From Candidatus Zixiibacteriota bacterium (lineage in GTDB: Bacteria; Zixibacteria; MSB-5A5; GN15; FEB-12), in contig JACZXB010000002.1 of the NCBI GenBank assembly GCA_022571845.1, forward strand, positions 43,979 to 107,978: a stretch of DNA of 64,000 bases. The letters are read 5' to 3'. Below, piece after piece: positions 9,439-57,466 of the stretch. The position numbers and the translations under genes are program-made. The stretch's first letter is position 1. Every line of letters begins with the position of its first letter. The notes below the pieces were generated by a model. That model saw only the letters and a program-made list of their open reading frames with translations, was not told the DNA's origin and made no database searches.

Positions 9439-9446
9439 CGGTCAAA

Positions 9447-10298: not shown

Positions 10299-10313
10299 TT
10301 ATCGGCTGCCCTG

Positions 10314-10458
10314 CTTCGAGTTCCTCGACAGCGCTTCGGGACTTTGTCCGCTCAGCATGAAGCAGTTTGAGCAAGCTTATCAAAACATTTGCGAATTGCG
10401 ACACGTTGAGCTTGACTGTCCTGCGTGGAGTCAAAACGTCACACTGAGCTTGTCGAAG
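10314..10458. repeat. Dispersed nested-hairpin intergenic repeat, copy 1
   Basis: Core cttcgagttcctcgacagcgcttcGGGACTTTGTCCGCTCAGcatga. Outer arms cttcga/tcgaag and inner arms gctcag/ctgagc. Related to the copies at 29538 and 40637. It sits between convergent genes. Confidence 0.6.
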
Positions 10459-10493
10459 TGAGAAGCTTTGCCAGCCAACTCAACTACTTTACT

Positions 10494-10534
10494 AAAAAAA
10501 ATGCCGGTTGCCTTTCAAAAAAGACAACCGGCAA
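10494..10534 (-). terminator. Rho-independent terminator of the 10577..11029 gene
   Basis: Stem tgccggttg / caaccggca, followed on the minus strand by a T-run (A-run 10494..10501 on plus). Confidence 0.6.
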
Positions 10535-10576
10535 TCGAATTTGATCAACCTATTTTTAAATAGCTTAATCTAAAAC

Positions 10577-11029: not shown

Positions 11030-11235
11030 TTAAGTACCTCCCACAGTTAAAAAAAATGAATTTATGATCCGATTGAACAACAGCTTTATTATCGGCGGAT
11101 TAAACCACTTTCTTTACGATTTATTTGTCCCCGTAAGAGACTGCCAGACAAGAATATCGTTGGTTTCATTTGGCGCAAAAGTCAGCTTTTTCGCCGGTAT
11201 CTCTGTTGTTGAAGTTTACAGATTTCTGACTTAGT

Positions 11236-12758: not shown

Positions 12759-12851
12759 TTAGGTTAGAAAAGAAGATACAGTCTGAAAATTGTCGTTTTA
12801 CTTGGTTTGCCTGCCAATTTATACTTCAGTTTTACGGGCAGCAGTAGTTAT

Positions 12852-20998: not shown

Positions 20999-21223
20999 CT
21001 AAGGACAGGGGCCGGGCTGAGGGCCGCCTCTGAAAATTAAGTCGACTAGGAATGTCAAATCTAAGATATTTCCAGATATTCCGTCTCCATTTACATCCCC
21101 CTCTTCCGGACAGGCAATATCGGAGCCACCCCTGAATATCAGGTCGACAATGTAGGTCAGGTCAAGAATATCGGCTGATAGGCTATTGTCACCATTCATG
21201 TCTCCTCTTAGACCGTTACAGCA
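20999..21223 (-). other. C-terminal tandem dockerin-like module (copy A)
   Basis: CCNGLRGDMNGDNSLSADILDLTYIVDLIFRGGSDIACPEEGDVNGDGISGNILDLTFLVDLIFRGGPQPGPCP, then stop. Confidence 0.75.
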
Positions 21224-23170: not shown

Positions 23171-23352
23171 TGCTGTTTTCCTCAAAACTAAAGAGGTTTG
23201 ATTAGGGTCATAATTCAATGGCGGTATCTACCAGTCTAAAATAGATGATTTCCTGTCAAACGCAACCACAAATTTCTATACGGCTATATTTATGAATTGT
23301 TCGGCAGAAAAAATCTCAAAAAACGCATATCAGGAGGATTTTCAATGTTTTA

Positions 23353-23577
23353 TTAGGGGCAATCAGCTGGCGGGTCGCCGCCTCTGAAAATTAAGTCCAC
23401 TAGGTATGTCAGGTCCAGTATATCAGACTGAATGCCATCGTCATTTATGTCACTTTCAAGCGGGCACTTGCCGTTATCGCCGCTGCCCCTGAAAATAAAA
23501 TCGACTAAGAAAGTAAGGTCGAGAATATTTGCATTTGTCCCATCGGAATTAAAATCGCCTCTTTGTCCTTGACAACA
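23353..23577 (-). other. C-terminal tandem dockerin-like module (copy B)
   Basis: CCQGQRGDFNSDGTNANILDLTFLVDFIFRGSGDNGKCPLESDINDDGIQSDILDLTYLVDLIFRGGDPPADCP, then stop. Confidence 0.75.
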
Positions 23578-25897: not shown

Positions 25898-26119
25898 TTA
25901 TGGACAGGAGCCGGGCGCCGGGCCGCCTCTGCATATCCTGTCAATGATAAATAGCAAGTCGTCGATGTCCACTATGTTGTCGTTATTAACATCGCCTTCA
26001 TCCTCGCAGGCCGGCGCCGGTCCGCCCCTGAAAATGAAGTCAATAAGATAAACTACGTCTGTTACAGTTACGGCAGGATTTCCATCGTTGTTCATGTCGC
26101 CTCGGTTGCCTACACAACA
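25898..26119 (-). other. C-terminal tandem dockerin-like module (copy C)
   Basis: CCVGNRGDMNNDGNPAVTVTDVVYLIDFIFRGGPAPACEDEGDVNNDNIVDIDDLLFIIDRICRGGPAPGSCP, then stop. Confidence 0.75.
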
Positions 26120-28063
26120 GCTTTCTCCCGGTACGAAAGTATTGAATACATAAAGCCCGGTCTGCATATCTGAGACAATTACTTTTCCCGATTCAAAATA
26201 CGGGTAGACACCCCAGGCGCCTTCATACGAACTCATCGGAGTTTGCAAGTGAGTATCGTAAAAGGCAACTTCATAAGGGTCAGTAGGGTCTTTTACATTC
26301 CAGACGCGTAAACCGTCTACATAGTGTGCAATAAAGAGATGTTCACCCTTCACATAACTGTTGTGAGTGACAGTATTTGGGTCGACTATAATATCTGCCA
26401 CTTTGTAAATGCTGCCTAAGTTAGAAATGTCAAAGACTCTGGTATAATTACCGCTGCCAATTTCATCTCCGATAAATAGAAAGTCACCATCTTCGCTAAA
26501 GGCCGCATTATGTGCTCCCGAACCGGGGTAATTAAACTGGCCAATCAATTGTATATTGCTCTTGTCTGTTAAATCCAGAATATCTACTCCAATACCATTA
26601 ATAGCACAGGCTGCCATAGTATCATTTCTGATGGCTACATCATGGTAGCTGTAGGGACTATAGGTGTTAACATATTCAGGGTTTGCCGGATCCAATATTG
26701 AATATATTACAAGCCCTGAGGGACTTCCCCCAATTTGATAGACGTAATGTCCATCAACCAGTCCATTGTGACAGCCACTGGACATTGTTGAAACAACCTG
26801 AGGATTGGTAACATCGGATATGTCGGCTATGATGGTTGGACCACCTTCTTGAAAAATTATTGTATAGTGACTGTAAGTTTTAACATCCTTTGTGTCATTT
26901 CCACCAGCAATGAAACCTACTTCGACAAACGGTGTGTCGTTTATGTCAATAATGTACAGCCCCGAAAACCTGCCACATATTAAGGCATATTCTTTTCCAT
27001 TGGTGCTGTCAGTATAGCCCCAAATATCGCCGTAGCTGGAACTCCCGTTCCATTGGCCGAAGAGGGATAGGTTTAGAGTATTATATCTGGTTCTGGTACT
27101 TTTAACGCGACTTGAAAGCAGTTCGTTATCGAGAGAATCATACGACCTGATTTGATAGTAATAATCTATTTCTGTCATCAAGTTGGTATGAGCAAAGTCC
27201 CGAATATCCCCAGGCTGTTCTGTCAGCAATTGGTCAGGTATTGAATCTGTATCCCAGAAGATTTTGAAATTGTCAGGATTTTGACCCGGGTAGACCCAGT
27301 TGAGATAAACTGAGTCCTCAAAAGCCGTGGCCAGCAGGCCAATATAGGTATTAATAACTAATTTGGCTGTATCAGTTTCAAAAAAGGTATGGCCGTCGGC
27401 AAGCCTTGGCCACCAGGCGTAGAGATTGTCCATGTCATCCAGAAGGACATTACTATCGGCATAAGTCAGGCCGGTGCTGTCGTAGTCACTTTTCATAATT
27501 AACAGGTACTCAAACTTTCCCTGAGCGCTGTTGTCGGGGTCCCATTTAAAATTCGGGTCGGGCAGGGGGCCGCTACCATCATCATATTCAACAATACAAA
27601 CATTAAGTCGGCGCGGATTAGCAGGCTCACTTATATCCCAGACTGAGCCGGGGAAAGTACCTACACCTGCAGACCTGAAAAGGTTTTCCCTTCTAAAAAA
27701 CTGTGCATTTGACCAATTGCTACTATCTATATCAAATCTGATTTCAACAGGAATGTAGTCTGTGGAACCTAAATTACTTCCAAAAAAGTCCGCACCCTTG
27801 GCAATACTTCCGCCAAACGCTTCATAATTAAAATCAACGCCACTCATCCATTGCGGTGTGCCTATCCATTCGGCATATATCTCAATCAGGCTGTCGCCGC
27901 CGGGAAGGCTCGAACTACTTCTGTTTTCAGAATCAATGGCGCTGTTCTTTTCAGAAAAAGGCGCAAGCGGCGGGTCAGATAGTGCTGAAAAAGCAAAAAA
28001 TAAAATAGTGCAGAGTATCAGCGAAACAAGACTTATAGATTTCTTCATAAGAGGCCTTATCAT
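25898..28063 (-). CDS. Secreted paralog C: same novel N-terminal domain + FN3-like + LVIVD/choice-of-anchor-B beta-propeller + C-terminal tandem dockerin-like module
   Basis: 721 aa. Signal peptide KKSISLVSLILCTILFFAFSALS. Collinear with paralog A (GLYIIDINDTP, IIADISDVTNP, GLVIYSILDPANP, GLRVWNVKDPTDP). Confidence 0.85.
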   Translation of the reverse strand: MIRPLMKKSISLVSLILCTILFFAFSALSDPPLAPFSEKNSAIDSENRSSSSLPGGDSLIEIYAEWIGTPQWMSGVDFNYEAFGGSIAKGADFFGSNLGSTDYIPVEIRFDIDSSNWSNAQFFRRENLFRSAGVGTFPGSVWDISEPANPRRLNVCIVEYDDGSGPLPDPNFKWDPDNSAQGKFEYLLIMKSDYDSTGLTYADSNVLLDDMDNLYAWWPRLADGHTFFETDTAKLVINTYIGLLATAFEDSVYLNWVYPGQNPDNFKIFWDTDSIPDQLLTEQPGDIRDFAHTNLMTEIDYYYQIRSYDSLDNELLSSRVKSTRTRYNTLNLSLFGQWNGSSSYGDIWGYTDSTNGKEYALICGRFSGLYIIDINDTPFVEVGFIAGGNDTKDVKTYSHYTIIFQEGGPTIIADISDVTNPQVVSTMSSGCHNGLVDGHYVYQIGGSPSGLVIYSILDPANPEYVNTYSPYSYHDVAIRNDTMAACAINGIGVDILDLTDKSNIQLIGQFNYPGSGAHNAAFSEDGDFLFIGDEIGSGNYTRVFDISNLGSIYKVADIIVDPNTVTHNSYVKGEHLFIAHYVDGLRVWNVKDPTDPYEVAFYDTHLQTPMSSYEGAWGVYPYFESGKVIVSDMQTGLYVFNTFVPGESCCVGNRGDMNNDGNPAVTVTDVVYLIDFIFRGGPAPACEDEGDVNNDNIVDIDDLLFIIDRICRGGPAPGSCP

Positions 28064-31244: not shown

Positions 31245-31457
31245 CTATGGATGAATTAACTCCGAACCACCACGGAAAATGAAGTCTACAAACATAGTAA
31301 GATCTACGATGCCAACTGAACCGTCGGCATTCACATCGCCTGTCTCCAGGACTAAAGGCGCATCACCACCCCTGAATATGAAGTCGACCATGAAAATAAG
31401 GTCAAGAATAGTGAAATTGCCATCCAGGTTAACATCGCCTGAAATATGTCCGATTAT
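31245..31457 (-). other. C-terminal tandem dockerin-like module (copy D, Cys-less variant)
   Basis: GHISGDVNLDGNFTILDLIFMVDFIFRGGDAPLVLETGDVNADGSVGIVDLTMFVDFIFRGGSELIHP, then stop. Confidence 0.75.
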
Positions 31458-34400
31458 GTTGCAGGTTCCGGACAATCCTCCCGACGGTCCACCGGTGTAA
31501 TCGTAGGTGACGTCGAAGGATGATACAATCTCATCCCAGATAAGAGTTCCGTCCTGTACACATAAAATATAATCAGTGACCGGGTAAGAGATATCAAGGA
31601 CCTGTCCCAAACCAGGCAGAGACTCATGAGACGCCAGTAGTTCAGTACCGCTTATCGGTACAGAACAACCGCTGGTGGGAATAACCATGGCAACTGAACC
31701 AAGATCCACATCAGAAAGTGAATAACCTAAACCCGAGGCATAGGCTTCACTGATGTATAAATGACCGGTTATCGGCTCAAGGGCATATTTCATAACTACG
31801 CGCTTAGGACAGGGGTCCATCGCCCAGGTTGGGTCGCCCTCACCAGCCACATTGATTGTATAGTCCTCAACATCACCGAAGGAAGTGGGTCCACACGGGG
31901 GCGGAGGAGCGTTATAATTCATTCTAACGCGCATTCTGGTGGGTCCCGGAAGTGCGTCACCAGGTACTACCACATTACCGGTATATGGACCTGAACCCGT
32001 AGACACGTCCAAAGTAACCGCTTCAGTCACTTCATCAAAGACGTAATCCTGATTCCAGTCGACCCAGACAGCACCTTGGTCTGTTTCGAAGTAGGGGTTA
32101 CCGAGTGTTATGATAATTGGATAGCTTCCGCCTACTTCCATAGTGGTCGAGAGCGCTGTGTAGTCACCGTACATGTCGCAACCGGTAGTGTTGTTGATAT
32201 CACCGACAGTTACGTTCGAAATATATTCATCGCAAATGTTACTTGTTGCTGAACAGTATGAAAGAACTCCCTCCTCAGCAAGGACAGTGATGGAGTATGG
32301 ACCTTCGGCGCTACTAGACGGGTCAAGCAAAACAGGGTAATAGTAGGTTCCGGCAGGCATACCCTCCCAGTATATCGTGACATTGCCGTCACCACAGTCA
32401 TCAAAGTTAAATGTGCCTGCGGTGGTGAAGTCCGTACACGGGCATCCCAGTGCCAGATTCAGCCAGGCATTACCGAAAGCGGGTGAAGTACCACAATAGC
32501 TAAGGGTAATATTCGCGGTTGCGGGGGTAGTAAATGCCTCCCATGCATGGCCACCGGCGAAGAATTCGCACTCGTGAGTGGCACAAGTGTTATCACCGGT
32601 AAAGGTGACGGGTGTGCCCAGCGTCAGTGCAGTTGGTGTGACCGATGCACAGTTATCATTTGCGGGAGGGTCACAGACGGTACACTCTATGGAAATTACT
32701 CCGTTACCGGTGTTGCTTGCGTAACCCCCGACTTCAATCAAATAGGTATTTCCTGTGACAGCGTCAAATGTGATTTGCGACTGCAGGCCACAGTAGTCAT
32801 CGTTACAGCCAATCAGAGGTGCTGTATTAGGGTCGACTCCGTCATAAATACCTAGATAGGAATCATAAGATGAGCCGCATAAACTTACTGTCGCCGGGCC
32901 TGTGCAGGTAGCCGTATAACAGTACCAGATATTAGCTGAGGTCATACATCCTCCCGGGCCATCGAAACTCGTGCCTATGGTAGTGTATGCCTGATCTACT
33001 ACGTTACCGATTTCTTCGCATTGCTCCCAATCATCGTTTTCAGGACCAGGAGCGGCTTCGGATATCGAGAGATCAAAATTAGGTATGCAAGCCGGTGACG
33101 GCCAGGTGTCTATCATGATATAATAGATGCCCGGATCCAAAGTTATTCCATAGAATCCCTTAGGGCTGCTGCTGGAGCTGGTAACTGTCGCGATACATGT
33201 CGAATTGGCGTCAGGGCATTCGTCATCAATAGACATCCCGGACCATGTCGTACCATTGGGGTCAAGGACAATATCAAGAGATACCGTTGCGCTAACTTCG
33301 ATCGAGTATATAATGTCCTCGCCGCCGTCGTACGATCCCAGACAGGTAGAGCTGTAGTTGTTACCACGACCACATGTCGTCTGACCGGCATCAAGATAGG
33401 GCAGGTCTTCCGGGATCTTAACGATTATCGGGTCAGTACAGTCATCACCGGCCGTTGGACCGGCGGACTGTGCGAAAGTCAAGTCAAAGTCAGGTATACA
33501 GTCCGGAGCTGGCCAGGTATCTACCATCACATAGTAGGTGCCCGGCTCCAAATGTACTCCAAACATCGTATGTGGCGATCCGCTGGAGCTGGTCGAGGTG
33601 CCGATACAGGTTGATGGGTCGGGAGGACAGCTGCCGTCGATCACGAAGCCGGTATAAGTGGTACCCTTGGCGTCGAGTGTTATATCGACATCGATAGCCG
33701 TTGCAACATTGACTTCATAAATAATGTCCTCGCCACCATCGTAAACGCCGAGGCAGGTGGCATCATAATAATCCAGCCTGCCGCAGGTATATTGATTGAG
33801 CAGAGTCACCGGGAGGGCTTCCGAGCCGGCGATATCGACAATTATAGGAATATCACAGTTGTCGCCATCGGCCGGAGGAGGACACTCTTCCACGTTTATT
33901 GTAAACTGGAAATCCGCCTCAATACCGTTACAGCTACCGTCACCTATGAAGACCGGGAAGTAATAGGTTGCCGGTCCGCTCAGGAAATCCCACCAGATGC
34001 GCGGGTTGGTAGAGCCGTCACCGCAATCGTCAAATGAGAAGCCTGTTCTGAGTATATAGGCGTTGCAATCGGTGCACTGGTCATATAGGACAACACCGAT
34101 ACACTCGATATCCGTGCTGGTGCCACAGAAATCTATTTCAACATTGTTACATGCATAAGGTAATTCAAATTTGTACCAAACAGCGTTCCAGTCCAGAACA
34201 CCGGGACAGTCAATTTGAGCGCCGAAGGTGTTTCCGGTGACGACGGTCGGGAACGGTCCGCTGACCAGTTCGGCTGTCGTGCACTCGTCATTTGCTCCAG
34301 AAACTGGACAGGGATCATCGGTGCAGTTGAGTCCTGAGGACCAGTTACCGCCGAGAGATCCGCAGTCGGCTTCGGTAATTTCGTCTTCACATGACGGAGC

Positions 34401-35852: not shown

Positions 35853-36074
35853 TTAGCACGGCCCGGGAGATGGTCCGCCGCGAAAGATTCTGTCCACCAG
35901 GAAAGTCAAATCAAGAATATCTGCAGGATTGTTGTCACCATTAACATCGCTTTCATTTGGGCATCCACCCGAATCGCCGCTACCTCTGAATATAAAATCC
36001 ACTGTGAAGGTCAAGTCTAAGATATCAGCATCGTCTCCATCACCATTCAGATCACCCCTGTTGCCGACACAACA
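35853..36074 (-). other. C-terminal tandem dockerin-like module (copy E)
   Basis: CCVGNRGDLNGDGDDADILDLTFTVDFIFRGSGDSGGCPNESDVNGDNNPADILDLTFLVDRIFRGGPSPGPC, then stop. Confidence 0.75.
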
Positions 36075-36578
36075 GCAAGCGTCGCCTATACCATCGCCAT
36101 CAGTATCTGCTTGACCCGGATTCGGGGTGTTCGGGCAGTTGTCCTCCGTATCCACGACACCGTCACCATCTGAATCAATTCCTATAATCGTTAAATTCCC
36201 ATTGCTAATATCCTGGTAATCAGTTCCACTATTGTCCATCCTCACACGGACTCGAACTTGATTGGATTGGTTATCTGGAACTGTCCAGTCATACGTATGA
36301 ATACTTCCAACGCCTGGATCGCCCGCAGGTAAATCCATGGCAATTACCAGCCAAGGGCCTCCAGCACCAGTAGTCGAGTACCATAAATCCCAGTTTTGCA
36401 AATTGTGCGAAATCGCAATAGACCATCGGATAGTATAAATGGAACCAACTTCGAGGGTTTCACCACCGTTGGGATCCGACAGCGTCACGTGTCCATTGGC
36501 ATTGCTGGCCAGTTGGAGCATGCTTACAATGGCTACCATAAGATAGAGAGAGCGCTTGAGATTGTGTGATTTGTTCAT
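35853..36578 (-). CDS. Small secreted protein: Ig-like N-domain + thrombospondin type-3-like Ca-binding repeats + C-terminal tandem dockerin-like module
   Basis: 241 aa with a signal peptide. DSDGDGVVDTEDNCPNTPNPGQADTDGDGIGDAC is a TSP3-type repeat. Confidence 0.8.
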   Translation of the reverse strand: MNKSHNLKRSLYLMVAIVSMLQLASNANGHVTLSDPNGGETLEVGSIYTIRWSIAISHNLQNWDLWYSTTGAGGPWLVIAMDLPAGDPGVGSIHTYDWTVPDNQSNQVRVRVRMDNSGTDYQDISNGNLTIIGIDSDGDGVVDTEDNCPNTPNPGQADTDGDGIGDACCCVGNRGDLNGDGDDADILDLTFTVDFIFRGSGDSGGCPNESDVNGDNNPADILDLTFLVDRIFRGGPSPGPC

Positions 36579-44629: not shown

Positions 44630-46432
44630 TTACAGTTCAGCTTTCTTTTTTCCTTCTGTCAATAGTCTGCTATACTCTTTGGGGTTTTGCAAAAGCTCGA
44701 CCGCTTTAAGCACGCCGGCGTCTGTCTTGAGAACTATTTCTTCATAGACACCGCGCTCGCTGGCAATTGATGAAACTATTTCACGTTTGATGGCCTTCAT
44801 GATATATTTCCGGGACTTATCAAAGTCTTTTCCCTTTTCAAATTCAATAAGAGATGCCAGAGAATCAATTGCCGGCTGCAGAAAATCCCGCTGGCTGTCG
44901 TCAGCGATTGATTCTTCAAGGTCCTCCAATGATAATTGAAGTTTTGTTTTATAGCTGAACTCTTTGTTTTCTACAAAGCTTTTGAACTCTTGAACCATGG
45001 CGTCTGTAACTTCAAAATTGGGTTTTACGTCAGGATGTTCAGAGACGTAATTGATAGCATAGTCAAAAAACATAGACTGCCTGACCATATTGATTTCTAT
45101 CGGCTTGTAGGTGTCACGATCGACTGTAACGTCAGGAATTATGCCGCCGCCGCCATAAACAACCCGGCCGCCATTGGTATAAAAAATCTCTTTGTTAGAG
45201 ACTTTCATGGAATCGCTGTCTTCATCTTCGTCATCATTTGACTTGTGACCTTTTTTATTTTGTCGATCCGGTCTTTGGATAGATCGTCCGGAGGGCACAT
45301 AATACTTGGCGGTTGTAAGTTTTAGCCTCATATCCCGGTCGTTTGAAACTGGAAAAATCTGCTGAACCAGCCCTTTGCCGTAAGTGTCGCTACCAATTAT
45401 AAGACCGCGGTCCCAGTCCTGAATGGCGCCAGCAACAATTTCCGAGGCCGAAGCTGTACCTTCGTCTACCAGAACTATTATTGGTTTATCAGGGAAAATA
45501 GGTTCGCGCTTGGAATAGAAATGGCGCTCGGTATCGGCATATTTGCCCTTGGTATAGACAACTTCGCGACCTTTTTCAAGAAACAGTTCGGCAGTCTCGA
45601 TGGCCTGGTCAAGTAATCCGCCGCCGTTTGAACGAAGGTCGAATATAAGTGCTGATACATTTTGGTCGTTGAGTTCGCTGATTGCTTCCCGTAGTTCATG
45701 GCTTGTCTCTTCGGCGAATTTGGACAGTCTGACATAGCCGATATCAGTACCAGGCACGACACCTGAATAATTGACAGACTTAAGTTCAATGACCGCCCGC
45801 TCGACTTCAAACTCCATCAACTCATCTATACCTGTTCTCTTGATCGTTAAGTGAATGGACGTTCCGGCTGTGCCTCTCATCAGTTTGGAAGCCTCCGAGG
45901 TACGCATCCCCTCGGTTTCAGTATCTTCAATCTTCCAGATAATATCGCCAGCCCGGAGTCCGCGTCTGTCTGCAGGAGAGCCCTCAATAGGAGAAATGAT
46001 TACAATCCTGTCATCACGGGAGTCAATTACCATTCCCAGACCTTCGTACTTGCCCTGAGTAGATTCCATCAGTGCATCATACGAGCGCGACTCCATCAAT
46101 ACTGAAAACCTGTCTAAGTCAGAAAGCATACCCCTGATACCGGCTTTGATTATTTCTTCGGTATCAACTTCTTCCATATAGTGGTTGCGGATATTAAAAG
46201 CTACCTGGCTGAGTTTTTTGATATCTCTGAAAAATGAGTCTCTTCTGGATTTAGGCGACTTGATTTCATCGGATTCATTCTGCTCTCCGGTCAGGTCTAT
46301 CTGAATTGTATCAGCCCAAAAAACAGGGTCAGATGATGCATTAGATTGCACAGCTTCGCCCGAACCAACAACCCAAATCATTGCTATGGCAAATACCGTA
46401 ATGCCAAATAATTGTATAGAAAAGCGGACCAT
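44630..46432 (-). CDS. S41-family C-terminal processing (tail-specific) protease with PDZ domain
   Basis: PDZ GLGMVIDSRDDRIVIISPIEGSPADRRGLRAGDII. Catalytic-region motifs DLRSNGGGLL, VLVDEGTASASEIVAGA, GKGLVQ. Confidence 0.85.
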   Translation of the reverse strand: MVRFSIQLFGITVFAIAMIWVVGSGEAVQSNASSDPVFWADTIQIDLTGEQNESDEIKSPKSRRDSFFRDIKKLSQVAFNIRNHYMEEVDTEEIIKAGIRGMLSDLDRFSVLMESRSYDALMESTQGKYEGLGMVIDSRDDRIVIISPIEGSPADRRGLRAGDIIWKIEDTETEGMRTSEASKLMRGTAGTSIHLTIKRTGIDELMEFEVERAVIELKSVNYSGVVPGTDIGYVRLSKFAEETSHELREAISELNDQNVSALIFDLRSNGGGLLDQAIETAELFLEKGREVVYTKGKYADTERHFYSKREPIFPDKPIIVLVDEGTASASEIVAGAIQDWDRGLIIGSDTYGKGLVQQIFPVSNDRDMRLKLTTAKYYVPSGRSIQRPDRQNKKGHKSNDDEDEDSDSMKVSNKEIFYTNGGRVVYGGGGIIPDVTVDRDTYKPIEINMVRQSMFFDYAINYVSEHPDVKPNFEVTDAMVQEFKSFVENKEFSYKTKLQLSLEDLEESIADDSQRDFLQPAIDSLASLIEFEKGKDFDKSRKYIMKAIKREIVSSIASERGVYEEIVLKTDAGVLKAVELLQNPKEYSRLLTEGKKKAEL

Positions 46433-48730: not shown

Positions 48731-48928
48731 CTAGGGTGTAGGCGGAGCGGGGCCGCCTCTGTATATGAAATCAACCAGATATGTAATATCTTTGGTATCA
48801 ATTTTATAATCAAAGTTCATATCCAAAGACTGCACGGTTACTGAGCCGGGACCTCCCCGCCAAATAAAATCTATTAAAAAAACCAGATCCAAAACAGATA
48901 TTTTGTTATCGTAGTTGGCATCCCCTCT
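48731..48928 (-). other. C-terminal tandem dockerin-like module (copy F, divergent, Cys-less)
   Basis: IIRGDANYDNKISVLDLVFLIDFIWRGGPGSVTVQSLDMNFDYKIDTKDITYLVDFIYRGGPAPPTP, then stop. Confidence 0.7.
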
Positions 48929-51103
48929 GATAATCTCTTTAGAACTTATTGAACCGACAAATACTATCGGAGTGTAGCTTGTCGAAGCTGTTGTTAGCTG
49001 CAGTTTGTTACTCAAGAACGAGGTCGTATCGATAGTTGCACCGATTCCTCCGAGAGCCAAACTGTCTATGGTCAGGTGAATTCTGAGAATGTCACCTTTT
49101 CCCGGAGCCAGAGGCGGCGAGCCTCCGCCATAATCAGCTATCAATATGAATCCATAACGGTTATTGTTAACATCGATTCCGGCTAAACTAACTTTTTCAA
49201 AGTAGCTAGTACGGCTGCCAAGGCTGACTGAATCAAATCTGAAATCAGAAGAACTGCCATACTTAAATGGTATTAAGAGCGAAGTAAGCAACTGAGTGTT
49301 GATTAGTTCAACATTGATTACCAACTTTTCTCCGGCGAAAGCCGAATCGGTCCCAATCGTCAAGGTATCACCATATAGCGTAATCAGACCTAATTGTTGA
49401 TTATCAATGTATCCGTAGCTAGTCAGAGTAGTCAAGGTGACGTCATAAGTTCCCGGGTTTATGTATTCATAGCTTGGGTTTTCCAATTGAGAGCTGCCGC
49501 CGTCACCAAAATCCCAGTTGTACTGAAATACCGGCAATGAAGAGTTTGACGTAAACTGAACTGTCAGAGGAACATTTCCTACTGACGGCTCAACTGAAAA
49601 TTCTGCTCCCCAGGTTAAAGCTTCAAGGAGATCAATTACTCCCCAGCCGTAGGTGTTGTTAGCTGAATCAGCATTATTCGCAGTTTCAAGCAGAGCTTGC
49701 CTGATAATTTCTGGCGGCATATTCGGTCTGGCCTGAACCAAAAGACATGCAGCCCCTGCTATGAGAGGAGTGGAAAGGGACGTTCCGCTGACACTCGTGT
49801 AGCTGCTGTCAGAATTTGCCGAGCCTGACCAGACATTCCTGCCTCTGGCGCAAACTTCGGGCTTGATTCGTCCGTCAAAAGTTGGTCCCCGCGAGGAAAA
49901 ACTTTCAATTAGACCGGCGCTGTTCACTGCTCCTACTGATAGAATGTTGTGAGCGTCAGCCGGCGCTATTAGTGTTCCTTCACCAGGTCCCATATTCCCC
50001 ATTGCGTTGCAGACTACAATACCCATAAAGGTAGCAATATTTGCAGCTATTGTGATGAGCGCTGTCTCACCATCCAAATCTGAATAAAAGTACCAGTCAA
50101 TATATCCAACAGATGAAGTCAAAACATCGGCCCCGAGTGAATCAGCCCATTCGGCTGCGGCTACCCAGTTATCTTCTTCGACCTGATTCTCAAACCTGAT
50201 ATCTTCAGTCTTGGCCAGGAGAAAATTTGCCCTGAAGGCCGGTCCGTAGAGAGTACCATCGACCTGTCCGCCGGCAGCAGACCAGATGTAAGTACCGTGG
50301 TTCCATTGGTCTGGATCGTCTATTGCCTCGTTGGCTGTATTAGTATCTCCAAAGACAAAATCGTACTCTGCCAACAAACGGCCATCGGCATAATGAGCCG
50401 CAAACGCATCGTGGGATTTTCTAAAACCTGTATCAAGTATTGCAAGTGTCACACCTTCGCCGCGGTAGCCTCTTTGATGTACAGCAATTACATTTATCTG
50501 CTTCAATTGAAAGGCAGAGTTGCCATAGTTAATTGCATCCGCGCTTTGGGCTTGAAAGAAATATTTCTGGGGCTTTATTTTCTCGACTTTTACAGGTGAT
50601 CTTTTATAAATTGCAATCGGCTCAATTGAAGAAATAAAAGGCAGCTGCATGACTTGAGCGAGTGTCTCGATGGAAACCTCAAAACTGGCGGCGTTTAGCC
50701 ATTTGGAACTTCGTCTATGCCTTGCCCCAAGTCTCTTGACTTGTTCTATATAATTTTGATAAACCGGCAAATCGGCAAAAACAATTCTCTCAAGCCCTGT
50801 TTTCTTACGCCTCGTTAACTGTTTCTCGCTCAAAAATGTTGAGCTGGCAGCTCTCTCAAATTCTTTGGAACTGAATAGCCCTTTGTCTGTGAAAAATAGC
50901 CAGATTCTCAGTTTCTCGCCGTCTCTTTCCAAGAGAAAATCTCTGGCTAACTCGGTAATCAGAGGATTCTTTACGCCGATTTGCACAGAAGTTGATTTTA
51001 AGTATTCGGTTCGAAAAACCGAGGCGGATTTTTCTACTGGTTTGGCGATGGAGAAAAGAAGTAAAGTGAGAGAAAGGATCTTTAAAAAAGTTCTGAAATA
51101 CAT
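48731..51103 (-). CDS. Secreted S8 subtilisin-like protease + PKD domain + cohesin-like module + C-terminal tandem dockerin-like module
   Basis: Triad contexts LAILDTGF, WNHGTYIWSAAGG, SGTSLSTPLIAGAA. PKD PLTVQFTSN...WDFGDGGSS...NPSYEYINPGTYDVTLT. Signal peptide present. Confidence 0.85.
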   Translation of the reverse strand: MYFRTFLKILSLTLLLFSIAKPVEKSASVFRTEYLKSTSVQIGVKNPLITELARDFLLERDGEKLRIWLFFTDKGLFSSKEFERAASSTFLSEKQLTRRKKTGLERIVFADLPVYQNYIEQVKRLGARHRRSSKWLNAASFEVSIETLAQVMQLPFISSIEPIAIYKRSPVKVEKIKPQKYFFQAQSADAINYGNSAFQLKQINVIAVHQRGYRGEGVTLAILDTGFRKSHDAFAAHYADGRLLAEYDFVFGDTNTANEAIDDPDQWNHGTYIWSAAGGQVDGTLYGPAFRANFLLAKTEDIRFENQVEEDNWVAAAEWADSLGADVLTSSVGYIDWYFYSDLDGETALITIAANIATFMGIVVCNAMGNMGPGEGTLIAPADAHNILSVGAVNSAGLIESFSSRGPTFDGRIKPEVCARGRNVWSGSANSDSSYTSVSGTSLSTPLIAGAACLLVQARPNMPPEIIRQALLETANNADSANNTYGWGVIDLLEALTWGAEFSVEPSVGNVPLTVQFTSNSSLPVFQYNWDFGDGGSSQLENPSYEYINPGTYDVTLTTLTSYGYIDNQQLGLITLYGDTLTIGTDSAFAGEKLVINVELINTQLLTSLLIPFKYGSSSDFRFDSVSLGSRTSYFEKVSLAGIDVNNNRYGFILIADYGGGSPPLAPGKGDILRIHLTIDSLALGGIGATIDTTSFLSNKLQLTTASTSYTPIVFVGSISSKEIIRGDANYDNKISVLDLVFLIDFIWRGGPGSVTVQSLDMNFDYKIDTKDITYLVDFIYRGGPAPPTP
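48944..49375 (-). other. Cohesin-like beta-sandwich module (aa ~577-720)
   Basis: GDTLTIGTDSAFAGEKLVINVELINTQLLTSLLIPFKYGSSSDFRFDSVSLGSRTSYFEKVSLAGIDVNNNRYGFILIADYGGGSPPLAPGKGDILRIHLTIDSLALGG follows the cohesin consensus pattern as I remember it. No HMM was run. Confidence 0.45.
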
Positions 51104-51403: not shown

Positions 51404-51910
51404 ATGATGTTATCCAAAAGAATTAAGTCAAGAAGTGGTATGACCATAATGGAACTAATGATAACAGTTGCTATAGTCGGTATTGTTGCAGCCATGGCGG
51501 TTCCCCGATTCCAGATAGGTTATGAAAGAATCAAGTTTCGAGCGGCCACTAGGGAGATAACTTCCCAGATAAGACTGGCACGGTCATATGCTGTGAGCAC
51601 CAAGAACCAGCACGGGGTGTACTTCGACCCGGCTACATTATCTTATACCCTCTTTAAGGATTTGGTAAATACCGGGGCCATGCAATATGATGTCGGAGAT
51701 TCTATAATTAGCCTGAAAACACTGCCTGGAGTATTTAACTTTTTAGCAACCGACGACATAAATAATTCGATAGTATTCAGATCAAACGGTTCAACTTCAG
51801 GTACTGTAAATGTGATTACTATGGCTTCTACACCGGACATCATAGGAATTCATCAGCATACTATTCTGGCAGCTACCGGAAGAATAGAAACTATTTCGTC
51901 GTATTACTAA
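51404..51910 (+). CDS. Type IV pilin-like protein, GspH/FimT family (minor pilin)
   Basis: Prepilin motif RSG/MTIMELMITVAIVGIVAAMAVPRF with Glu at +5. GspH-like REITSQIRLARSYAVS. Confidence 0.8.
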   Translation: MMLSKRIKSRSGMTIMELMITVAIVGIVAAMAVPRFQIGYERIKFRAATREITSQIRLARSYAVSTKNQHGVYFDPATLSYTLFKDLVNTGAMQYDVGDSIISLKTLPGVFNFLATDDINNSIVFRSNGSTSGTVNVITMASTPDIIGIHQHTILAATGRIETISSYY

Positions 51911-51956
51911 GTGTGCAGGATTTGAACAAAAGTTTCAAATAGAAACAGATTTACTT

Positions 51957-51982
51957 ACCCCCGGCTGAAACCGGGGGTTTTT
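51957..51982 (+). terminator. Rho-independent terminator
   Basis: Stem cccccgg / ccggggg with loop ctgaaa, followed by ttttt. Confidence 0.7.
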
Positions 51983-52217
51983 AATAATAATTAATAAAAA
52001 CTTTCGATTTATGATAAATAGAGTAAAGACGCATTCAGGCAAATCCGATAATTAGTTTATCCGTAGGAATATTTTGCTGCAGAAATATACAAGTTAGATG
52101 GAGCAATTATTGGTGAGCTTGGCAAAAAAGTTAACTAACAAGGCATTTTGTCGATAAGATAAAAGTCTGTATACCGGATACCGGGAAAAAACAAATAAGG
52201 GAAGCGAAGAGCACTAT

Positions 52218-53267
52218 ATGTTTTCAAGTGGAAGTAAATCAACTGTAGGTCTGGATATCGGGGCTAATTCAGTTAAGCTGGTCAAACTTGACCATACCAA
52301 AGACGGCTATGCTGTCGCCGCTATTGGAATCAGAGAGTTTCCTCCCGAGGCGATAGTTGCCGATGAAATAAGAGACCGGGAAGCTGTTATATTCAATATT
52401 CAGTCACTTATTGATCAGACTGACCCCAAAATAAAAAATGTAGTAGTTTCACTCTCAGGTCACGGTGTAATAACTGACCGCTTCACTATTGATAAGAAAA
52501 CCGGCGCAGAAGCCGAGCAGGCGATTTTGTTCGAAACAGAACAACGGGCGCCATTTGATATAGATGATGTCTCTTTGGATTACCACATCATCAGCACAAA
52601 CGACGAAGAAAATAAGATGGATGTCTTATTGGTAGCGGCCAGACGCGAGTATCTGGCCATGTTCCTGGAACTGATTCAGGATTGCGGGCTCAATCCTGTT
52701 ATTGTCGATGATGACTCCCTGGCTATCTATAATTCATATATCAACAATTACGATGTAGACCCGACCAGAACTACAGCTCTGGTCAATATTGGCCATGACG
52801 TTACCAACATTACTTATATTGTAGATGGACAATACCAGTCAACCCGCGACGTTTCCTCGGGAACCCGTGATGTCTATGACGCCATTCAAAAGGAATTCCG
52901 GCTCAATCCGGAGCTTACCAATAAAGCTATTAAGGGTGAAATGCAGGATTCTGTTGATCAGGACATGCTCAAAGCCACTATTATAGCAGCGACCGATGAA
53001 TTGATTTCAGGAATCGAGCTGGCCTTTTCATACTTTAAGTCTCAAGCCAAAATTGATAATGTGGAATGGCTGGTTTTGTCCGGTGGTGGAGCGCTGATAC
53101 CTTATCTGCCTGAATTTTTACAGTCCAAATTGGGCGTCCCGTTAGAGATTGCTAATCCTCTGAGAAATGTAGACTACGACCCCGAACTGTTCCAGTATCT
53201 GCAGCCGGAAAAAATTGCGCCGCTTCTTTCAGTTCCAGTAGGTCTGGCCATGAGGAAGACTAAGTAG
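52218..53267 (+). CDS. pilM: Type IV pilus assembly protein PilM (actin-like ATPase fold)
   Basis: 349 aa. N-terminal VGLDIGANSVKLVKL, DVLLVAARRE, IVDDDSLA, LSGGGALIP. First gene of the pilMNOPQ order. Confidence 0.85.
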   Translation: MFSSGSKSTVGLDIGANSVKLVKLDHTKDGYAVAAIGIREFPPEAIVADEIRDREAVIFNIQSLIDQTDPKIKNVVVSLSGHGVITDRFTIDKKTGAEAEQAILFETEQRAPFDIDDVSLDYHIISTNDEENKMDVLLVAARREYLAMFLELIQDCGLNPVIVDDDSLAIYNSYINNYDVDPTRTTALVNIGHDVTNITYIVDGQYQSTRDVSSGTRDVYDAIQKEFRLNPELTNKAIKGEMQDSVDQDMLKATIIAATDELISGIELAFSYFKSQAKIDNVEWLVLSGGGALIPYLPEFLQSKLGVPLEIANPLRNVDYDPELFQYLQPEKIAPLLSVPVGLAMRKTK

Positions 53268-53274
53268 GCATACC

Positions 53275-54006
53275 ATGATGATAGAAATAAATTTACTACC
53301 AAAAGAATATCAAAAGAAAAGGTTTAACCTTTCTTTCGGAAAAGCCGGAGCATACGCAGCTTTTGGTGTCATTGGAATCCTGGTGATGCTGGCCGGGGTG
53401 ACATTCTATCAGATGCAGCAAGTAGCAAGCCTTGATGCCAGAATCAAAATCGCCAACAAGCGCGCTGCCATGCTCAAAAAAGATATCAAAATTGTCGATG
53501 CTCTGATTGATGTTAAGAACAAAGTAAAACAGCGCATGGCGGCAGTAGAAAAATTAGACAGCCATCGCTCAACTTGGGTTAGAATCTTAAACGATTTTGC
53601 AAAGATCGTACCGGATTTTGTCTGGCTCGGGCAAATTGAAGAAGTAACACAGAAAAAAGATGACAAGAAAAAGGGAGCGAGGGCCACTCAAAATAAGGCG
53701 ACAGCGGAACCTGCAATAGCTAAGGGTGGCCTGCCAACTGTAAGACCTGTCAAAATTGAAGGATACGCTTTTACATTGAATGCTCTGGCTTCGTTTATGA
53801 TTAAGATGATGCGCTCTGATTACTTTGATGAAGTGGAATTGACTTCTACTTCCGAAGTGACCTTTGAAAATCACAAAGCTCACAACTTCGTGATTAATGC
53901 AAATTTACATTATCTCTCAGACGATGAGATGCGTCAGTTGATAGCCAGTGCTTTAGGAACAGACAAGGGAAGTTCACGAAAAACCAGCCATAAAAAGCTG
54001 AATTAA
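53275..54006 (+). CDS. pilN: Type IV pilus assembly protein PilN
   Basis: INLLPKEYQKKR start motif, a single TM helix, then a coiled-coil. Position follows pilM. Confidence 0.75.
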   Translation: MMIEINLLPKEYQKKRFNLSFGKAGAYAAFGVIGILVMLAGVTFYQMQQVASLDARIKIANKRAAMLKKDIKIVDALIDVKNKVKQRMAAVEKLDSHRSTWVRILNDFAKIVPDFVWLGQIEEVTQKKDDKKKGARATQNKATAEPAIAKGGLPTVRPVKIEGYAFTLNALASFMIKMMRSDYFDEVELTSTSEVTFENHKAHNFVINANLHYLSDDEMRQLIASALGTDKGSSRKTSHKKLN

Positions 54007-54020
54007 GAAGAGACTATGTA

Positions 54021-54638
54021 ATGGACTTCAAAGACCCAAAAAATCAAAAGTTAATTCTCGGGGCGGTTGCGTTCTTGGTAGTCGTTTATTTCTGGTATAT
54101 CAAGGTTTATGAAAATTATGACGCCCAAATAAGCAACAAGACTCAGCAATTCGAAACAGTTACTACAAATCTGCGCAATGTTGAAATGAAAGCAAAATCT
54201 CTGGATGCTTTGCAGATTGAGTATGAAGATTTAGTAAAGCGCTACGACCAGATCGAGTCTCTTCTGCCGGAGGTGAAGCAGATTCCTTCATTGCTGGTGC
54301 AGCTGCATACCGCTTCATCTATAACCGGCACTACAATCAAAAAGATTAAGCCTATTCCGATTGAGCCGGAAGAATTTTACAACGTCACTGCCTTTGAGAT
54401 CGAGATGGTCGGCGGGTTTCATGATTTTGCAGTTTTCATGAGCTATGTGGCCAACTTTCCCTTTATTGCCAACGTTTCAGGTGTCAAGATTACTGCCAAA
54501 AACGTGGCAATATCCAGTAAGGCGCAAAAAGACGGACTACAAAATCTTTCAAAGAAAAAAGAAACCATAACTGCAGTCTTTACACTGTCAACATATTTTG
54601 TACAGGAATCGGAACGACTCCACGAATTGGAAATATAG
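54021..54638 (+). CDS. pilO: Type IV pilus assembly protein PilO
   Basis: 205 aa. N-terminal TM helix, coiled-coil, ferredoxin-like C-domain (LPEVKQIPSLLVQL...). Position fits the gene order. Confidence 0.7.
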   Translation: MDFKDPKNQKLILGAVAFLVVVYFWYIKVYENYDAQISNKTQQFETVTTNLRNVEMKAKSLDALQIEYEDLVKRYDQIESLLPEVKQIPSLLVQLHTASSITGTTIKKIKPIPIEPEEFYNVTAFEIEMVGGFHDFAVFMSYVANFPFIANVSGVKITAKNVAISSKAQKDGLQNLSKKKETITAVFTLSTYFVQESERLHELEI

Positions 54639-54651
54639 TTTGAGGGAACTA

Positions 54652-56139
54652 ATGAGGAGCTTTTTTACAATATTTTTCGCTGCCACTTTGCTGGCAGCCG
54701 GTTCAGCATATTCGTCAAAAGTGATAAATATCAAGCTGGATCATATCGAGGGCTTTACTGTTACCAATATAAGTGTCGATGGTCCGGTGCGCTTCACTCA
54801 TCAAACAGAAATTGCAAAAGATGGCAGACCGTTCAGAATAATTGTAGATATTCTTTCTGCCACGCATAATCTGAGCGCTAAGACATTTGAAAATCTGCCA
54901 GATTGTCGCGTTACCGGAATCCGCAGCAGCCAGTTCTCGGTTAAGCCTGAAAAAATTGTTCGTATTGTATTAGACATGAAAGGCGAATCGACCTATAGAA
55001 TAGAGTCTCGCAATAATTCTGTATTTTTGTTTGTTCACGATAAAGACAGTAAACCGTTTGCAACCTGGTCATCAGATTCATACAAGAAGTCTGCTCCGGC
55101 CAAGAAGCCGGCTGTTGCAGCAAAGCCTTCGTCTGCTAAAGAAAAGCCAGACAAGAGTTCATTTGAAAAAATTGCATCTATTAATAAAGCTCTTGATGAC
55201 GACCGCAAATCAAGCCTCGAATCAGCGGAATCAAAACCGTTTATTTATCCCAGGAGAGAGCCGAGCTCTGCTAAAATACCTAGCTCCGAAATTTCTGTCC
55301 CCAAAGTAAAGCAGCCCTCGACAACAAAGAAAATGTATTCTCCTGTAATTGATGATGCGCCGCAGGCAAAGACGTCTACCCAAAATTTGGCTGCCGCTAA
55401 CAAGAAGCCTGTGACAAAAAAATTAGCAGCTAAGCCATCATCGCTAACAAAGCCCACTGGTAACTCAGTTCCTTCTACAAAAAAGGAAACGATAAAAACA
55501 GCTAAAGTTACGAGAAAACCATCTACGGCAGTTTCAAAGCCAGCTCAGTCAAAACCGACTCAGGCAAAGCAGTTTAAGTCCAAAACCGGATCAAAACTGA
55601 AAAAAACCGGTCTGCCGCTAAGCCCCAATAAGGCAAAAGCTGGCAAGCTGGCAAAAAATACGAATGTCAAGAAATCATCTGCTAATAAAAAGAAAAGCAA
55701 CAAGCCAGCTACAGTTGCCAAGACTGACAAGAAAGCAACGAAGAGCTCCACTGCCAGATTCCGTCGCAGCCCGGCACAGTCAAGGAAAATCAAAGGGACG
55801 ATGGTTGCAGAATTTCCAAAGCGTCTGGTAATAAAATACAAAGGAAAGCGCTATCGTGACCCGTTTGAGACTCTTATCAATGAGACCAGGATCAGCAACA
55901 GTCTGGTCGAAAAGCGGGTACCGAATGTCGAAGGTCTGAAACTGGTTGGCGTGCTCGAAACAGCCGGTGAAAGTAACAGAGCCTTGTTTGAAGATAAAGA
56001 TGGCTTCGGATATATTCTTAGCGCCGGTGACAAAGTACAAAAAGGCTATGTCCTGAGGGTTGATATGGAGAAAGTATATTTCCAGATATTTGAGTATGGT
56101 TGGAGCCGTACCGTAGCACTGAATATGGATTCTTATTAG
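54652..56139 (+). CDS. AMIN domain + long basic low-complexity linker + PilP-like C-terminal domain (PilP-position protein)
   Basis: Signal peptide MRSFFTIFFAATLLAAGSAYS. AMIN-like aa 42-146 (FRIIVDILSA...VTGIRSSQFS...IVRIVLDMKG). Lys/Pro/Ala/Ser/Thr-rich region aa ~160-400. C-terminal LKLVGVLETAGESNRALFEDKDGFGYILSAGDKV is PilP-like. Confidence 0.7.
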   Translation: MRSFFTIFFAATLLAAGSAYSSKVINIKLDHIEGFTVTNISVDGPVRFTHQTEIAKDGRPFRIIVDILSATHNLSAKTFENLPDCRVTGIRSSQFSVKPEKIVRIVLDMKGESTYRIESRNNSVFLFVHDKDSKPFATWSSDSYKKSAPAKKPAVAAKPSSAKEKPDKSSFEKIASINKALDDDRKSSLESAESKPFIYPRREPSSAKIPSSEISVPKVKQPSTTKKMYSPVIDDAPQAKTSTQNLAAANKKPVTKKLAAKPSSLTKPTGNSVPSTKKETIKTAKVTRKPSTAVSKPAQSKPTQAKQFKSKTGSKLKKTGLPLSPNKAKAGKLAKNTNVKKSSANKKKSNKPATVAKTDKKATKSSTARFRRSPAQSRKIKGTMVAEFPKRLVIKYKGKRYRDPFETLINETRISNSLVEKRVPNVEGLKLVGVLETAGESNRALFEDKDGFGYILSAGDKVQKGYVLRVDMEKVYFQIFEYGWSRTVALNMDSY

Positions 56140-56158
56140 GTAAGGAAGGGATAGACTA

Positions 56159-57466
56159 ATGTTTAGCAAAAAATATAATAAACTGATTCTAATTTCAGTA
56201 TTGCTGGCTTTTTCGATGGGACTGCTGGTAGCTGTCACAGCTCAGGAAGAGGCTCCGGAAAAAGCTCTGGTAACAGCCCAGAAGGAGCCAATCAAAAACT
56301 TGCAGTTTCAGTCTGCCGATATCCGCTCGGTACTCAGTTTTCTGGCCGATTATGGAGATGTTAACGTAGTCGTTGCTCCCGATGTTCAGGGTGCCGTAAC
56401 AATCAAGCTGACCAATGTCCTTTGGCGTAATGCCTTAGACATCATTGGACGCACTTATGGCCTGGCTGTAGTTGATGAACCCAGCGGCTATATAAGAGTG
56501 TTAACGAAAGTAAACTATCGCAAAGAGAAATCAGAGCAGGAAAAGCATAAGAAAGAACAGCGCGAACTGGTAGAACTGGAAACCAAAATTATTAAAATTG
56601 CTAACTCTACCTCTGATGATATTGCCAAGACCGCCAAATCTCTTTTAACTGAGAGAGGCGAAGTGATTAGCGACTCTCGCTCAAATTCAATAATTCTGCG
56701 CGAAGTTCCTGCAAATATGGAAAAAGTTACGAAGCTCATTGCAGAACTGGACAGACCTGCCAGGCAGATTAAAATATCAACTCAGTTACTAGAAGTATTC
56801 ACCAATGATCTGCGAGAGCTTGGCATCGCCTGGACCGTAGCGGGTACTTATACAACCCAGTCCGGTCGCTCGTATCCTCAAAAAGGAGAAGTGCTTACTG
56901 CACGCGGCACCGATGTAGCCGGCCGTTATTCGGTTAGCGCTATCCAACGTGGCTGGTCAGTGGATGCTATCGTAGAGGCGCTGGTAAGCTCCGGTAAAGG
57001 AAGAATTATTGCTCATCCGGAAATAACCACCTTAGAAAACAAAACTGCCAGGATTCAGGTGGGTCAAAAAATACCGGTTAAGCAGTTTGATCAATCAGGA
57101 AACGTAGTTATAAAATTTGAAGAAGTAGGCACTATTTTAGAAGTTACACCACACATAACTGCCAAAAATCGAATTCTCATGCATCTCAAACCCGAGAGAT
57201 CAACTTACCAGTTTGATCCCAACGGAGTTATTATTAATACCAGCAACGCCGAAACAAATGTAATTGTTAATAACGGTCAGACAGCTGTTATAGCCGGTTT
57301 GACAACTCAGGACGAAGTAGAGTCCGAGGTTGGTATTCCGATCCTAAAAGATATTCCTATTATAGGTGTGCTTTTCAGATTCCGTCAGACTAAAACAGAA
57401 AGCCGTGACCTGGTGATTTTTGTAACTCCTACCATAGTCGAAGAAGAGCTGGCCTTAGGCGACTAA
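56159..57466 (+). CDS. pilQ: Type IV pilus secretin PilQ (short form, no AMIN domain)
   Basis: 435 aa. N0/STN-like LQFQSADIRSVLSFLADYGDVNVVV. Secretin C-domain GRIIAHPEITTLENKTARIQVGQKIP...VIAGL...IPILKDIPIIGVLFR...LVIFVTPTIV. Confidence 0.85.
   Translation: MFSKKYNKLILISVLLAFSMGLLVAVTAQEEAPEKALVTAQKEPIKNLQFQSADIRSVLSFLADYGDVNVVVAPDVQGAVTIKLTNVLWRNALDIIGRTYGLAVVDEPSGYIRVLTKVNYRKEKSEQEKHKKEQRELVELETKIIKIANSTSDDIAKTAKSLLTERGEVISDSRSNSIILREVPANMEKVTKLIAELDRPARQIKISTQLLEVFTNDLRELGIAWTVAGTYTTQSGRSYPQKGEVLTARGTDVAGRYSVSAIQRGWSVDAIVEALVSSGKGRIIAHPEITTLENKTARIQVGQKIPVKQFDQSGNVVIKFEEVGTILEVTPHITAKNRILMHLKPERSTYQFDPNGVIINTSNAETNVIVNNGQTAVIAGLTTQDEVESEVGIPILKDIPIIGVLFRFRQTKTESRDLVIFVTPTIVEEELALGD

Follow-up and report, generated by a model that had tools for sequence, protein, structure and literature searches.

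A 64,000-nucleotide stretch of contig JACZXB010000002.1 from a Candidatus Zixiibacteriota bacterium (hereafter the window) encodes at 48731-51103, on the minus strand, a 790-residue protease of family S8, and we conclude with near certainty that residues 571-724 of this enzyme form a genuine but divergent cohesin. The module sits between a PKD domain and a C-terminal tandem dockerin, and the three constitute a cassette that recurs on other proteins. To our minds there is about an even chance that the cassette, acting between chains, serves as a two-ended connector within a complex on the surface of this Zixibacteria lineage, one that is rich in proteases and not cellulosomal.

Domain layout of the protease

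The features of the open reading frame (ORF) are as follows, with residue numbers (aa) referring to the encoded protein.

51026..51103, minus strand: signal peptide, aa 1 to ~26 (MYFRTFLKILSLTLLLFSIAKPVEKS), recognised by eye from a basic N-terminus, a hydrophobic core and a small-residue region
50462..51025, minus strand: pre-catalytic N-terminal region, aa ~27-214, presumed propeptide
49640..50461, minus strand: Peptidase S8 (subtilase) catalytic domain, aa 215-488 (PF00082, E=1.5e-42)
49397..49606, minus strand: PKD domain, aa 500-569 (Pfam PKD_4 2.1e-13, PKD 2.9e-08)
48932..49393, minus strand: divergent cohesin module, aa 571-724, with beta-strands within aa 580-721 (AlphaFold2)
48734..48931, minus strand: tandem dockerin, aa 725-790, with Pfam Dockerin_1 at aa 727-776
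48887-48922, minus strand: Ca2+ loop 1 of the dockerin, DANYDNKISVLD, aa 728-739, followed by a helix
48788-48823, minus strand: Ca2+ loop 2 of the dockerin, DMNFDYKIDTKD, aa 761-772, followed by a helix

The order of S8, PKD, cohesin and dockerin had been proposed in a preliminary description of this DNA, and Pfam, profile and fold evidence now confirm it. The PF00082 match is full-length (profile positions 1-288 of 288) and the catalytic triad D224, H269 and S442 appears in canonical order within the motifs ILDTG, NHGTY and SGTSLSTP. With the complete triad and the signal peptide ahead of it, the protease should be secreted and catalytically active. No credible family is found by Pfam scan in aa ~27-214, which are presumed to be a propeptide from their location upstream of the S8 domain. 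Scaffoldins are non-catalytic and carry multiple cohesins, and with its single cohesin and intact S8 domain the protease does not fit this class and is adaptor-like at most.

A divergent cohesin

The Pfam report on the whole 790-residue protein contains no Cohesin and leaves aa ~570-725 without any family. When the module is scanned in isolation its sole match is Cohesin (PF00963), at 17.5-17.9 bits (E ~0.004-0.0048), in an alignment spanning aa ~580-696 and profile positions 2-117 of 139. The preliminary description had placed a cohesin-like module at aa ~577-720 (nt 48944-49375), and PF00963 upholds this as far as extent is concerned, the match being near full-length, but not as far as score is concerned, since the module's own sequence does not reach the Pfam gathering threshold for Cohesin of 24.1 bits. 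A single-sequence phmmer search of the module against PDB sequences returned noise only (TGFBI, E ~0.7), and a profile search was therefore needed. An exhaustive phmmer search of 1.84 billion representative proteins with the module gave 205 homologues at E<=1e-3, 37 of them at E<=1e-10, and 58 near-full-length modules cut from these relatives make up a family alignment, A1. All nine matches of the A1 profile in the PDB are cohesins, the best being 4uyp_A (E=0.0024) and the others 5m2s_A, 4ums, 5m2o, 5nrk/5nrm, 1aoh, 3ul4 and 2xdh, the last of which is a non-cellulosomal cohesin of A. fulgidus. Furthermore, eight of the 58 A1 members match Pfam Cohesin individually at E<=0.01 (best 3e-09) with no competing family, and several relatives exceed the Pfam cut-off over the same region, namely P0086 (77 bits), P0127 (43.9) and P0141 (36.3). 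In P0086 the module query matches residues 475-613 at E=1e-7 and Pfam Cohesin matches residues 478-594. Homology to accepted cohesins is in other words demonstrable by way of P0086, the A1 members and the profile matches in the PDB.

Structure prediction leads to the same assignment. AlphaFold2, run with A1 on aa 571-724, gives an all-beta model with a predicted local distance difference test score (pLDDT) of 95.4 and a predicted template-modelling score (pTM) of 0.88; the model displays the nine-stranded cohesin fold of ~140-150 residues, so that the fold on which the preliminary assignment depended is indeed obtained, and its strands agree with the boundaries proposed there. A Foldseek search of the PDB has type I, II and III cohesins in all of its top 50 places, at TM scores of 0.65-0.77, E-values down to 4.8e-10 and a probability of 1.00; 2xdh is found at rank 6 (TM 0.70-0.78, identity ~14%), and the identity of the module to solved cohesins is 11-19%. 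It might be argued that the likeness arose by chance in some generic beta-sandwich, such as a further Ig or PKD-like domain, and the absence of Cohesin from the Pfam report on the whole protein and the irrelevant outcome of the single-sequence PDB search would fit such a view. However, no other fold competes among the nine profile matches and the 50 structural matches, and homology is transitive through relatives that lie above the Pfam threshold at the same residues, and we therefore hold this explanation to be hardly credible and effectively refuted here. The assignment as a genuine cohesin follows from the agreement of four lines of evidence: the PDB profile matches, the Pfam matches of individual members, the above-threshold relatives and the predicted fold.

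The tandem dockerin of the protease

The preliminary description had also read the C-terminus as a divergent tandem dockerin, and a genuine one it is, since the Dockerin_1 (PF00404) cut-off of 22.9 bits is exceeded in isolation (30.6 bits) as it is within the complete protein (25.2 bits). A type I dockerin consists of tandem segments of ~22 residues, each with a 12-residue EF-hand-like loop (D/N at positions 1, 3 and 5, D at position 12) and a helix, and the tail shows this in its two loops, its Pfam score and the helices that AlphaFold2 places at cassette residues 167-179 and 200-212. In 59 cassettes the aspartates at loop position 12, D739 and D772, never vary. Positions 10 and 11 of the loops are V-L in the first repeat and T-K in the second, and the symmetry that underlies the dual binding mode, which is not required for family membership, is thus absent. 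This argues against symmetric dual binding, and the sequence suggests a single binding orientation, if any, for the protease dockerin.

A portable cassette

In nearly all relatives a PKD domain is followed by the cohesin and then immediately by a C-terminal tandem dockerin. The cassette is found on S8 proteases (P0004 and orthologues), on a C25 gingipain-like peptidase (P0033) and on LVIVD-repeat proteins of locus L001, and in 131 cassettes the linker from G717, the glycine of the last cohesin strand, to the first Ca2+-loop aspartate measures 8-16 residues with a median of 10. Typical cellulosomal linkers appear to be far longer. Relatives with a named source are Zixibacteria, and the closest database relatives are labelled 'PKD domain-containing protein', with precomputed Pfam lists that do not include Cohesin. 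A scan of species-representative genomes with a six-sequence alignment gave 13 loci, mostly in metagenome-assembled genomes (MAGs) of Zixibacteria, with some MAGs labelled Ignavibacteriales, one Acidoferrum and one Acidimicrobiaceae. A word-indexed homologue search yielded two proteins when queried with module and tail and 30 when queried with the cassette alignment, which is too shallow for coevolution analysis. One apparent relative, P0077 (808 aa) with six cohesin-like stretches, is a pentapeptide-repeat, low-complexity false positive of phmmer.

The L001 locus (Zixibacteria GCA_016199865.1) encodes two adjacent LVIVD-repeat proteins, at 6735-8912 and 8978-11047, with the layouts (PKD-cohesin)x2-dockerin and PKD-cohesin-dockerin and with dockerins of an unusual Cys/His-rich type (CDCHCHADPVCDG...). 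Unlike these, the LVIVD protein of the window (20999-23218) has a dockerin and no cohesin.

Dockerin-free cohesins and candidate anchors

Among 195 cohesin domains collected from this clade, a dockerin follows 132 and does not follow 58, and these 58 are succeeded by another cohesin (24), by a sorting domain of the type IX secretion system (T9SS; 20) or by something else (14). P0086 carries four tandem cohesins that run straight into a Por_Secre_tail, the family P0179-P0193 has two to four cohesins ahead of the T9SS sorting domain, and P0194, which NCBI labels as Zixibacteria, combines BACON, Cohesin and the T9SS domain. To judge from their domain order, these scaffoldin-like multi-cohesin proteins are candidates, and the natural ones, for anchoring dockerin-tagged proteins, and would suit that role better than the protease. 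P0086 lies at 1233-3392 of locus L002 (metagenome 3300005236), between flagellar genes for a FlgG-like rod protein and FliJ.

The window itself holds no second cohesin: with all filters off, the family HMM (hidden Markov model) picks out only the protease ORF among all six-frame segments of 60 aa or more, a phmmer search of the window ORFs with the module yields no paralogue, and Cohesin is absent from the Pfam results for 21 of the larger proteins. To this extent the statement that the protease module is the only candidate receptor for dockerins in the window stands.

Pairing between or within chains

If the cassette is a connector, the dockerin of the protease would plug into a cohesin of another protein, be it a further cassette protein or a multi-cohesin scaffoldin that is T9SS-anchored and encoded in another part of the genome, and its cohesin would be the socket for a further dockerin-tagged protein. 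The outcome would be head-to-tail chains or small branched assemblies, as binding experiments imply for Amy4 of Ruminococcus bromii, and by analogy with that enzyme a polymer or adaptor function, as first suggested in the preliminary description, is plausible. Potential partners are abundant, since six dockerin-tagged proteins are encoded in the window. Furthermore, proteins of the layout PKD-Coh-PKD-Coh-Doc possess one socket more than they have plugs, and their cohesin that is not adjacent to the dockerin keeps all the signature residues of the subclade; this excess of sockets and the existence of dockerin-free tandem arrays argue that the cohesins of the clade act in trans.

The main rival is a rigid or intramolecular pair, in which the cohesin binds the dockerin of its own chain in a closed, Ca2+-stabilised C-terminal knob that would be a stability or solubility module, an auto-inhibited state or a composite recognition or sorting unit. 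We regard this as possible, although distinctly less probable than a connector. When AlphaFold2 is supplied with 59 cassettes, paired as they occur in nature, the model of aa 571-790 has a pLDDT of 95.4 and a pTM of 0.87 over both modules, which implies a low inter-domain error, and since an uncertain placement of the 66-residue dockerin should lower the pTM to about 0.7, a fixed mutual orientation of cohesin and dockerin is what we infer from the model. Together with the short and tightly bounded linker this makes pairing within the chain a live alternative, and the inheritance of the cassette as a unit on unrelated S8, C25 and LVIVD cargo is in agreement with it. A further and weak indication in its favour is that for cassette residues 121-130, the end of strand 8 and the loop after it, the pLDDT is 91 without the dockerin and 97 with it. 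However, monomer models from AlphaFold2 are often closed for proteins that exchange domains between chains, and a sequence signature of an interface in cis is not found. D579, N602, R631, G668, G670, P712 and G717 are conserved to the same degree whether the cohesin is fused or free, and P612, T632, F635 and Y710, which are enriched in dockerin-fused cohesins and could have been taken as the mark of such an interface, are also kept in the first, non-dockerin-adjacent cohesin of the two-cohesin proteins P0010 and P0015 and therefore mark a subclade and not adjacency. Mean-field direct coupling analysis of 131 cassettes (effective number of sequences ~122) is underpowered and dominated by gappy loop columns, and its leading inter-domain pairs, for instance 87/88 with 203, are unreliable. 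A Foldseek search of the PDB with the whole cassette retrieves only cohesin chains, at a query-normalised TM score of ~0.5, and no single chain with both modules.

A third possibility, which appears rather unlikely, is that the module has kept the cohesin fold and no longer binds dockerins, being instead a spacer or a binder of glycan, of an envelope component or of a substrate protein, so that attachment would be by the dockerin alone. The score below the Pfam cut-off and the 11-19% identity to solved cohesins would fit this case, as would the invariant residues R631, G668 and G670, which are specific to the clade in a comparison confined to its own members, and cohesin-like folds are reported in non-dockerin contexts such as TMEM132 (PMC6030884). 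On the other hand, co-occurrence with dockerins is near-obligate, 132 of the 195 domains being directly fused to one, the remaining domains sit in tandem arrays in the classical layout of scaffoldins, and the same genome abounds in dockerin-tagged proteins in need of a receptor.

Several observations do weigh against the connector. The pTM of the 220-residue cassette, 0.87, is close to the 0.88 of the cohesin by itself, and throughout the 131 cassettes the linker stays short, at 8-16 residues; a pair that is rigid or bound to itself would account for these two points no less well than a connector with two free ends. No scaffoldin is encoded within the window according to the family HMM and the Pfam scans, and P0194 is the only one of the T9SS-tailed cohesin proteins to carry a Zixibacteria label. 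Moreover, four of the five other dockerin tails in the window belong to a different subtype, and the strict synteny of the protease with pilus and secretion genes, which is described below, hints at a dedicated housekeeping role instead of a general enzyme complex.

The connector may be extended to a more specific proposal, namely that a self-complementary cassette links proteases and other cargo into Ca2+-dependent chains or networks at the cell surface, which would be seeded on T9SS-anchored multi-cohesin proteins and whose S8 member would be exported by, or tied to, the neighbouring pseudopilin/PilM/secretin machine. We consider this proposal as a whole unlikely.

Other dockerin-like tails in the window

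Six window proteins end in tandem dockerin-like repeats, and sequence comparison of the tails shows that these, as mentioned in the preliminary description, are real. The five besides that of the protease are the following.

31248..31463, minus strand: tail of a 1352-aa GEVED/PPC protein (31245-35303); Dockerin_1 22.4 bits, just below threshold
21002..21223, minus strand: tail of the 739-aa LVIVD-repeat protein (20999-23218); long-loop, four-Cys (CC..C..C)
23356..23577, minus strand: tail of an 840-aa FG-GAP/Big_5 protein (ORF 23353); long-loop, four-Cys
25901..26122, minus strand: tail of a 721-aa protein (ORF 25898); Cys-clasped, Dockerin_1 20.3 bits
35856..36077, minus strand: tail of a 241-aa TSP3-repeat protein (35853-36578); long-loop, Cys-clasped

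Only the protease tail passes the Dockerin_1 cut-off; two others reach 22.4 and 20.3 bits, and the remaining three of the six are not reported by Dockerin_1 at E<=0.1, which means that Pfam misses three of the four Cys-clasped tails. The GEVED/PPC tail is of the protease subtype, with canonical 12-residue loops, a single cysteine and no four-Cys clasp, and the protease tail has no cysteine at all. The four Cys-clasped tails have loops of 13-14 residues in most repeats and share a pattern of cysteines that, counted from the C-terminus, reads CC at ~-74/-73, C at ~-37 and C at ~-2, which suggests a disulfide-clasped dockerin subtype distinct from that of the protease. Since four of the five other tails are of another subtype, it is doubtful that one receptor serves all five, and recruitment by the protease of all five proteins, as the preliminary description had envisaged, seems unlikely. 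The secreted 241-aa protein consists of thrombospondin type 3 (Ca2+-binding) repeats and the tail only, and has no catalytic domain.

Genomic context

Features of the neighbourhood that bear on secretion and on the cell envelope are listed here.

51404..57466, plus strand: cluster of a GspH-like pseudopilin, PilM, PilN/O-like proteins, a 513-aa protein and a secretin (GspD N0), assigned by Pfam
12807-16556, plus strand: first T9SS-tailed protein, a second S8 protease with FG-GAP repeats (Por_Secre_tail)
16553-18667, plus strand: second T9SS-tailed protein, adjoining the first (Por_Secre_tail)
44630-46432, minus strand: S41 (CtpB-like) PDZ protease
3753-5774, minus strand: Omp85-family protein

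The pseudopilin/secretin cluster is divergent from the protease gene, and its continuation also includes a Big_1/invasin-like protein. The adjacency of protease, GspH-like gene and PilM is kept in all 11 orthologous loci (L003-L013), across which the identity of the protease falls to as low as 47% and that of PilM is 75-99%. This gene order suggests that the protease may be tied in function to a machine of the type II secretion or type IV pilus kind, which might for instance export it. In Dichelobacter nodosus, secretion of subtilisin-like proteases needs type IV fimbrial biogenesis. The S41 protease gene lies 2.3 kb from that of the S8 protease and is often syntenic in orthologous loci.

The same block of protease, pseudopilin and PilM is present in four MAGs labelled 'uncultured Ignavibacteriales' (L005, L006, L008 and L010) and in one labelled 'Candidatus Acidoferrum' (L009), and the PilM proteins of these five are ~78-85% identical to that of the window. 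On this basis the five MAGs look more like relatives of Zixibacteria, or mislabelled or contaminated bins, than like true Ignavibacteriales or Acidobacteria.

The organism uses the T9SS pathway, since the window encodes two T9SS-tailed proteins, and these in combination with the Omp85-family protein, which supports an outer membrane, and with the secretin lead us to infer that such a membrane is present. Two C-terminal tags, the T9SS C-terminal domain and the dockerin, hence coexist in one genome on similar cargo that includes two subtilases.

Relation to known systems and significance

Pairing of cohesin and dockerin organises cellulosomes, is familiar as the 'plug and socket' of cellulose degraders and is a common tool in protein engineering, and almost all tested examples are from Gram-positive Firmicutes. 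The closest experimental analogue of the protease is Amy4 of R. bromii, the cohesin of which binds its own dockerin as well as those of other enzymes, implying multimers (PMC4611034). Both are secreted hydrolases with one cohesin and one C-terminal dockerin, and both occur in genomes with dockerin-tagged proteins that include peptidases. However, Amy4 is a GH13 amylase of a Gram-positive Firmicute with a sortase-linked scaffoldin anchor, whereas the present enzyme is an S8 protease of Zixibacteria in which a PKD domain is followed by a cohesin and a dockerin joined directly, with only 8-16 residues between them, and its anchors are likely of the T9SS type.

At the level of the system the closest analogue is the cellulosome-like complex of Cloacimonadota, where a tandem-cohesin scaffoldin has been proposed to receive dockerin-tagged S8/S53 and C25 peptidases of 'Ca. 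Stygibacter' and to attach to the cell surface by a conserved C-terminal domain (PMC8542988). The cargo classes (S8, C25) and the logic of the anchor are the same, but the phylum differs from Zixibacteria, and the Cloacimonadota enzymes are described as carrying dockerins only, their cohesins being confined to one giant non-catalytic scaffoldin, whereas here the enzyme itself carries a cohesin within the cassette.

Adaptor scaffoldins such as ScaB of Acetivibrio cellulolyticus and ScaA/ScaB of R. flavefaciens similarly unite one or more cohesins and a dockerin on one bridging chain; they are however non-catalytic and have several cohesins and long linkers, while the protease is catalytic, has a single cohesin and is nearly devoid of a linker. 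Non-cellulosomal cohesins such as that of A. fulgidus (2xdh) resemble the present module in being single modules in proteins unrelated to cellulose degradation. A survey of non-cellulosomal cohesins and dockerins by Peer et al. in 2009 reportedly mentions two-module proteins and peptidase cargo, and in the library that was searched no paper names Zixibacteria and dockerin together. The new elements here are a clade of cohesins overlooked by standard annotation and the way in which it is joined directly to a dockerin to give a portable PKD-Coh-Doc cassette. Equally new are the relatives with several cohesins and a T9SS anchor, and the synteny that is kept with a pilus/secretion cluster.

If the module pairs with its own dockerin, this would represent a distinct use of cohesin and dockerin modules. 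If it binds dockerins of other chains, the clade would provide new orthogonal cohesin-dockerin pairs and would explain the many dockerin-tailed proteins in Zixibacteria genomes, and cellulosome-like assembly would extend to surface protein degradation in an uncultured and probably outer-membrane-bearing phylum. Should the cassette be self-complementary as well, a cellulosome-like organisation would have been built around proteolysis, and not around polysaccharide breakdown, in a lineage that apparently possesses an outer membrane.

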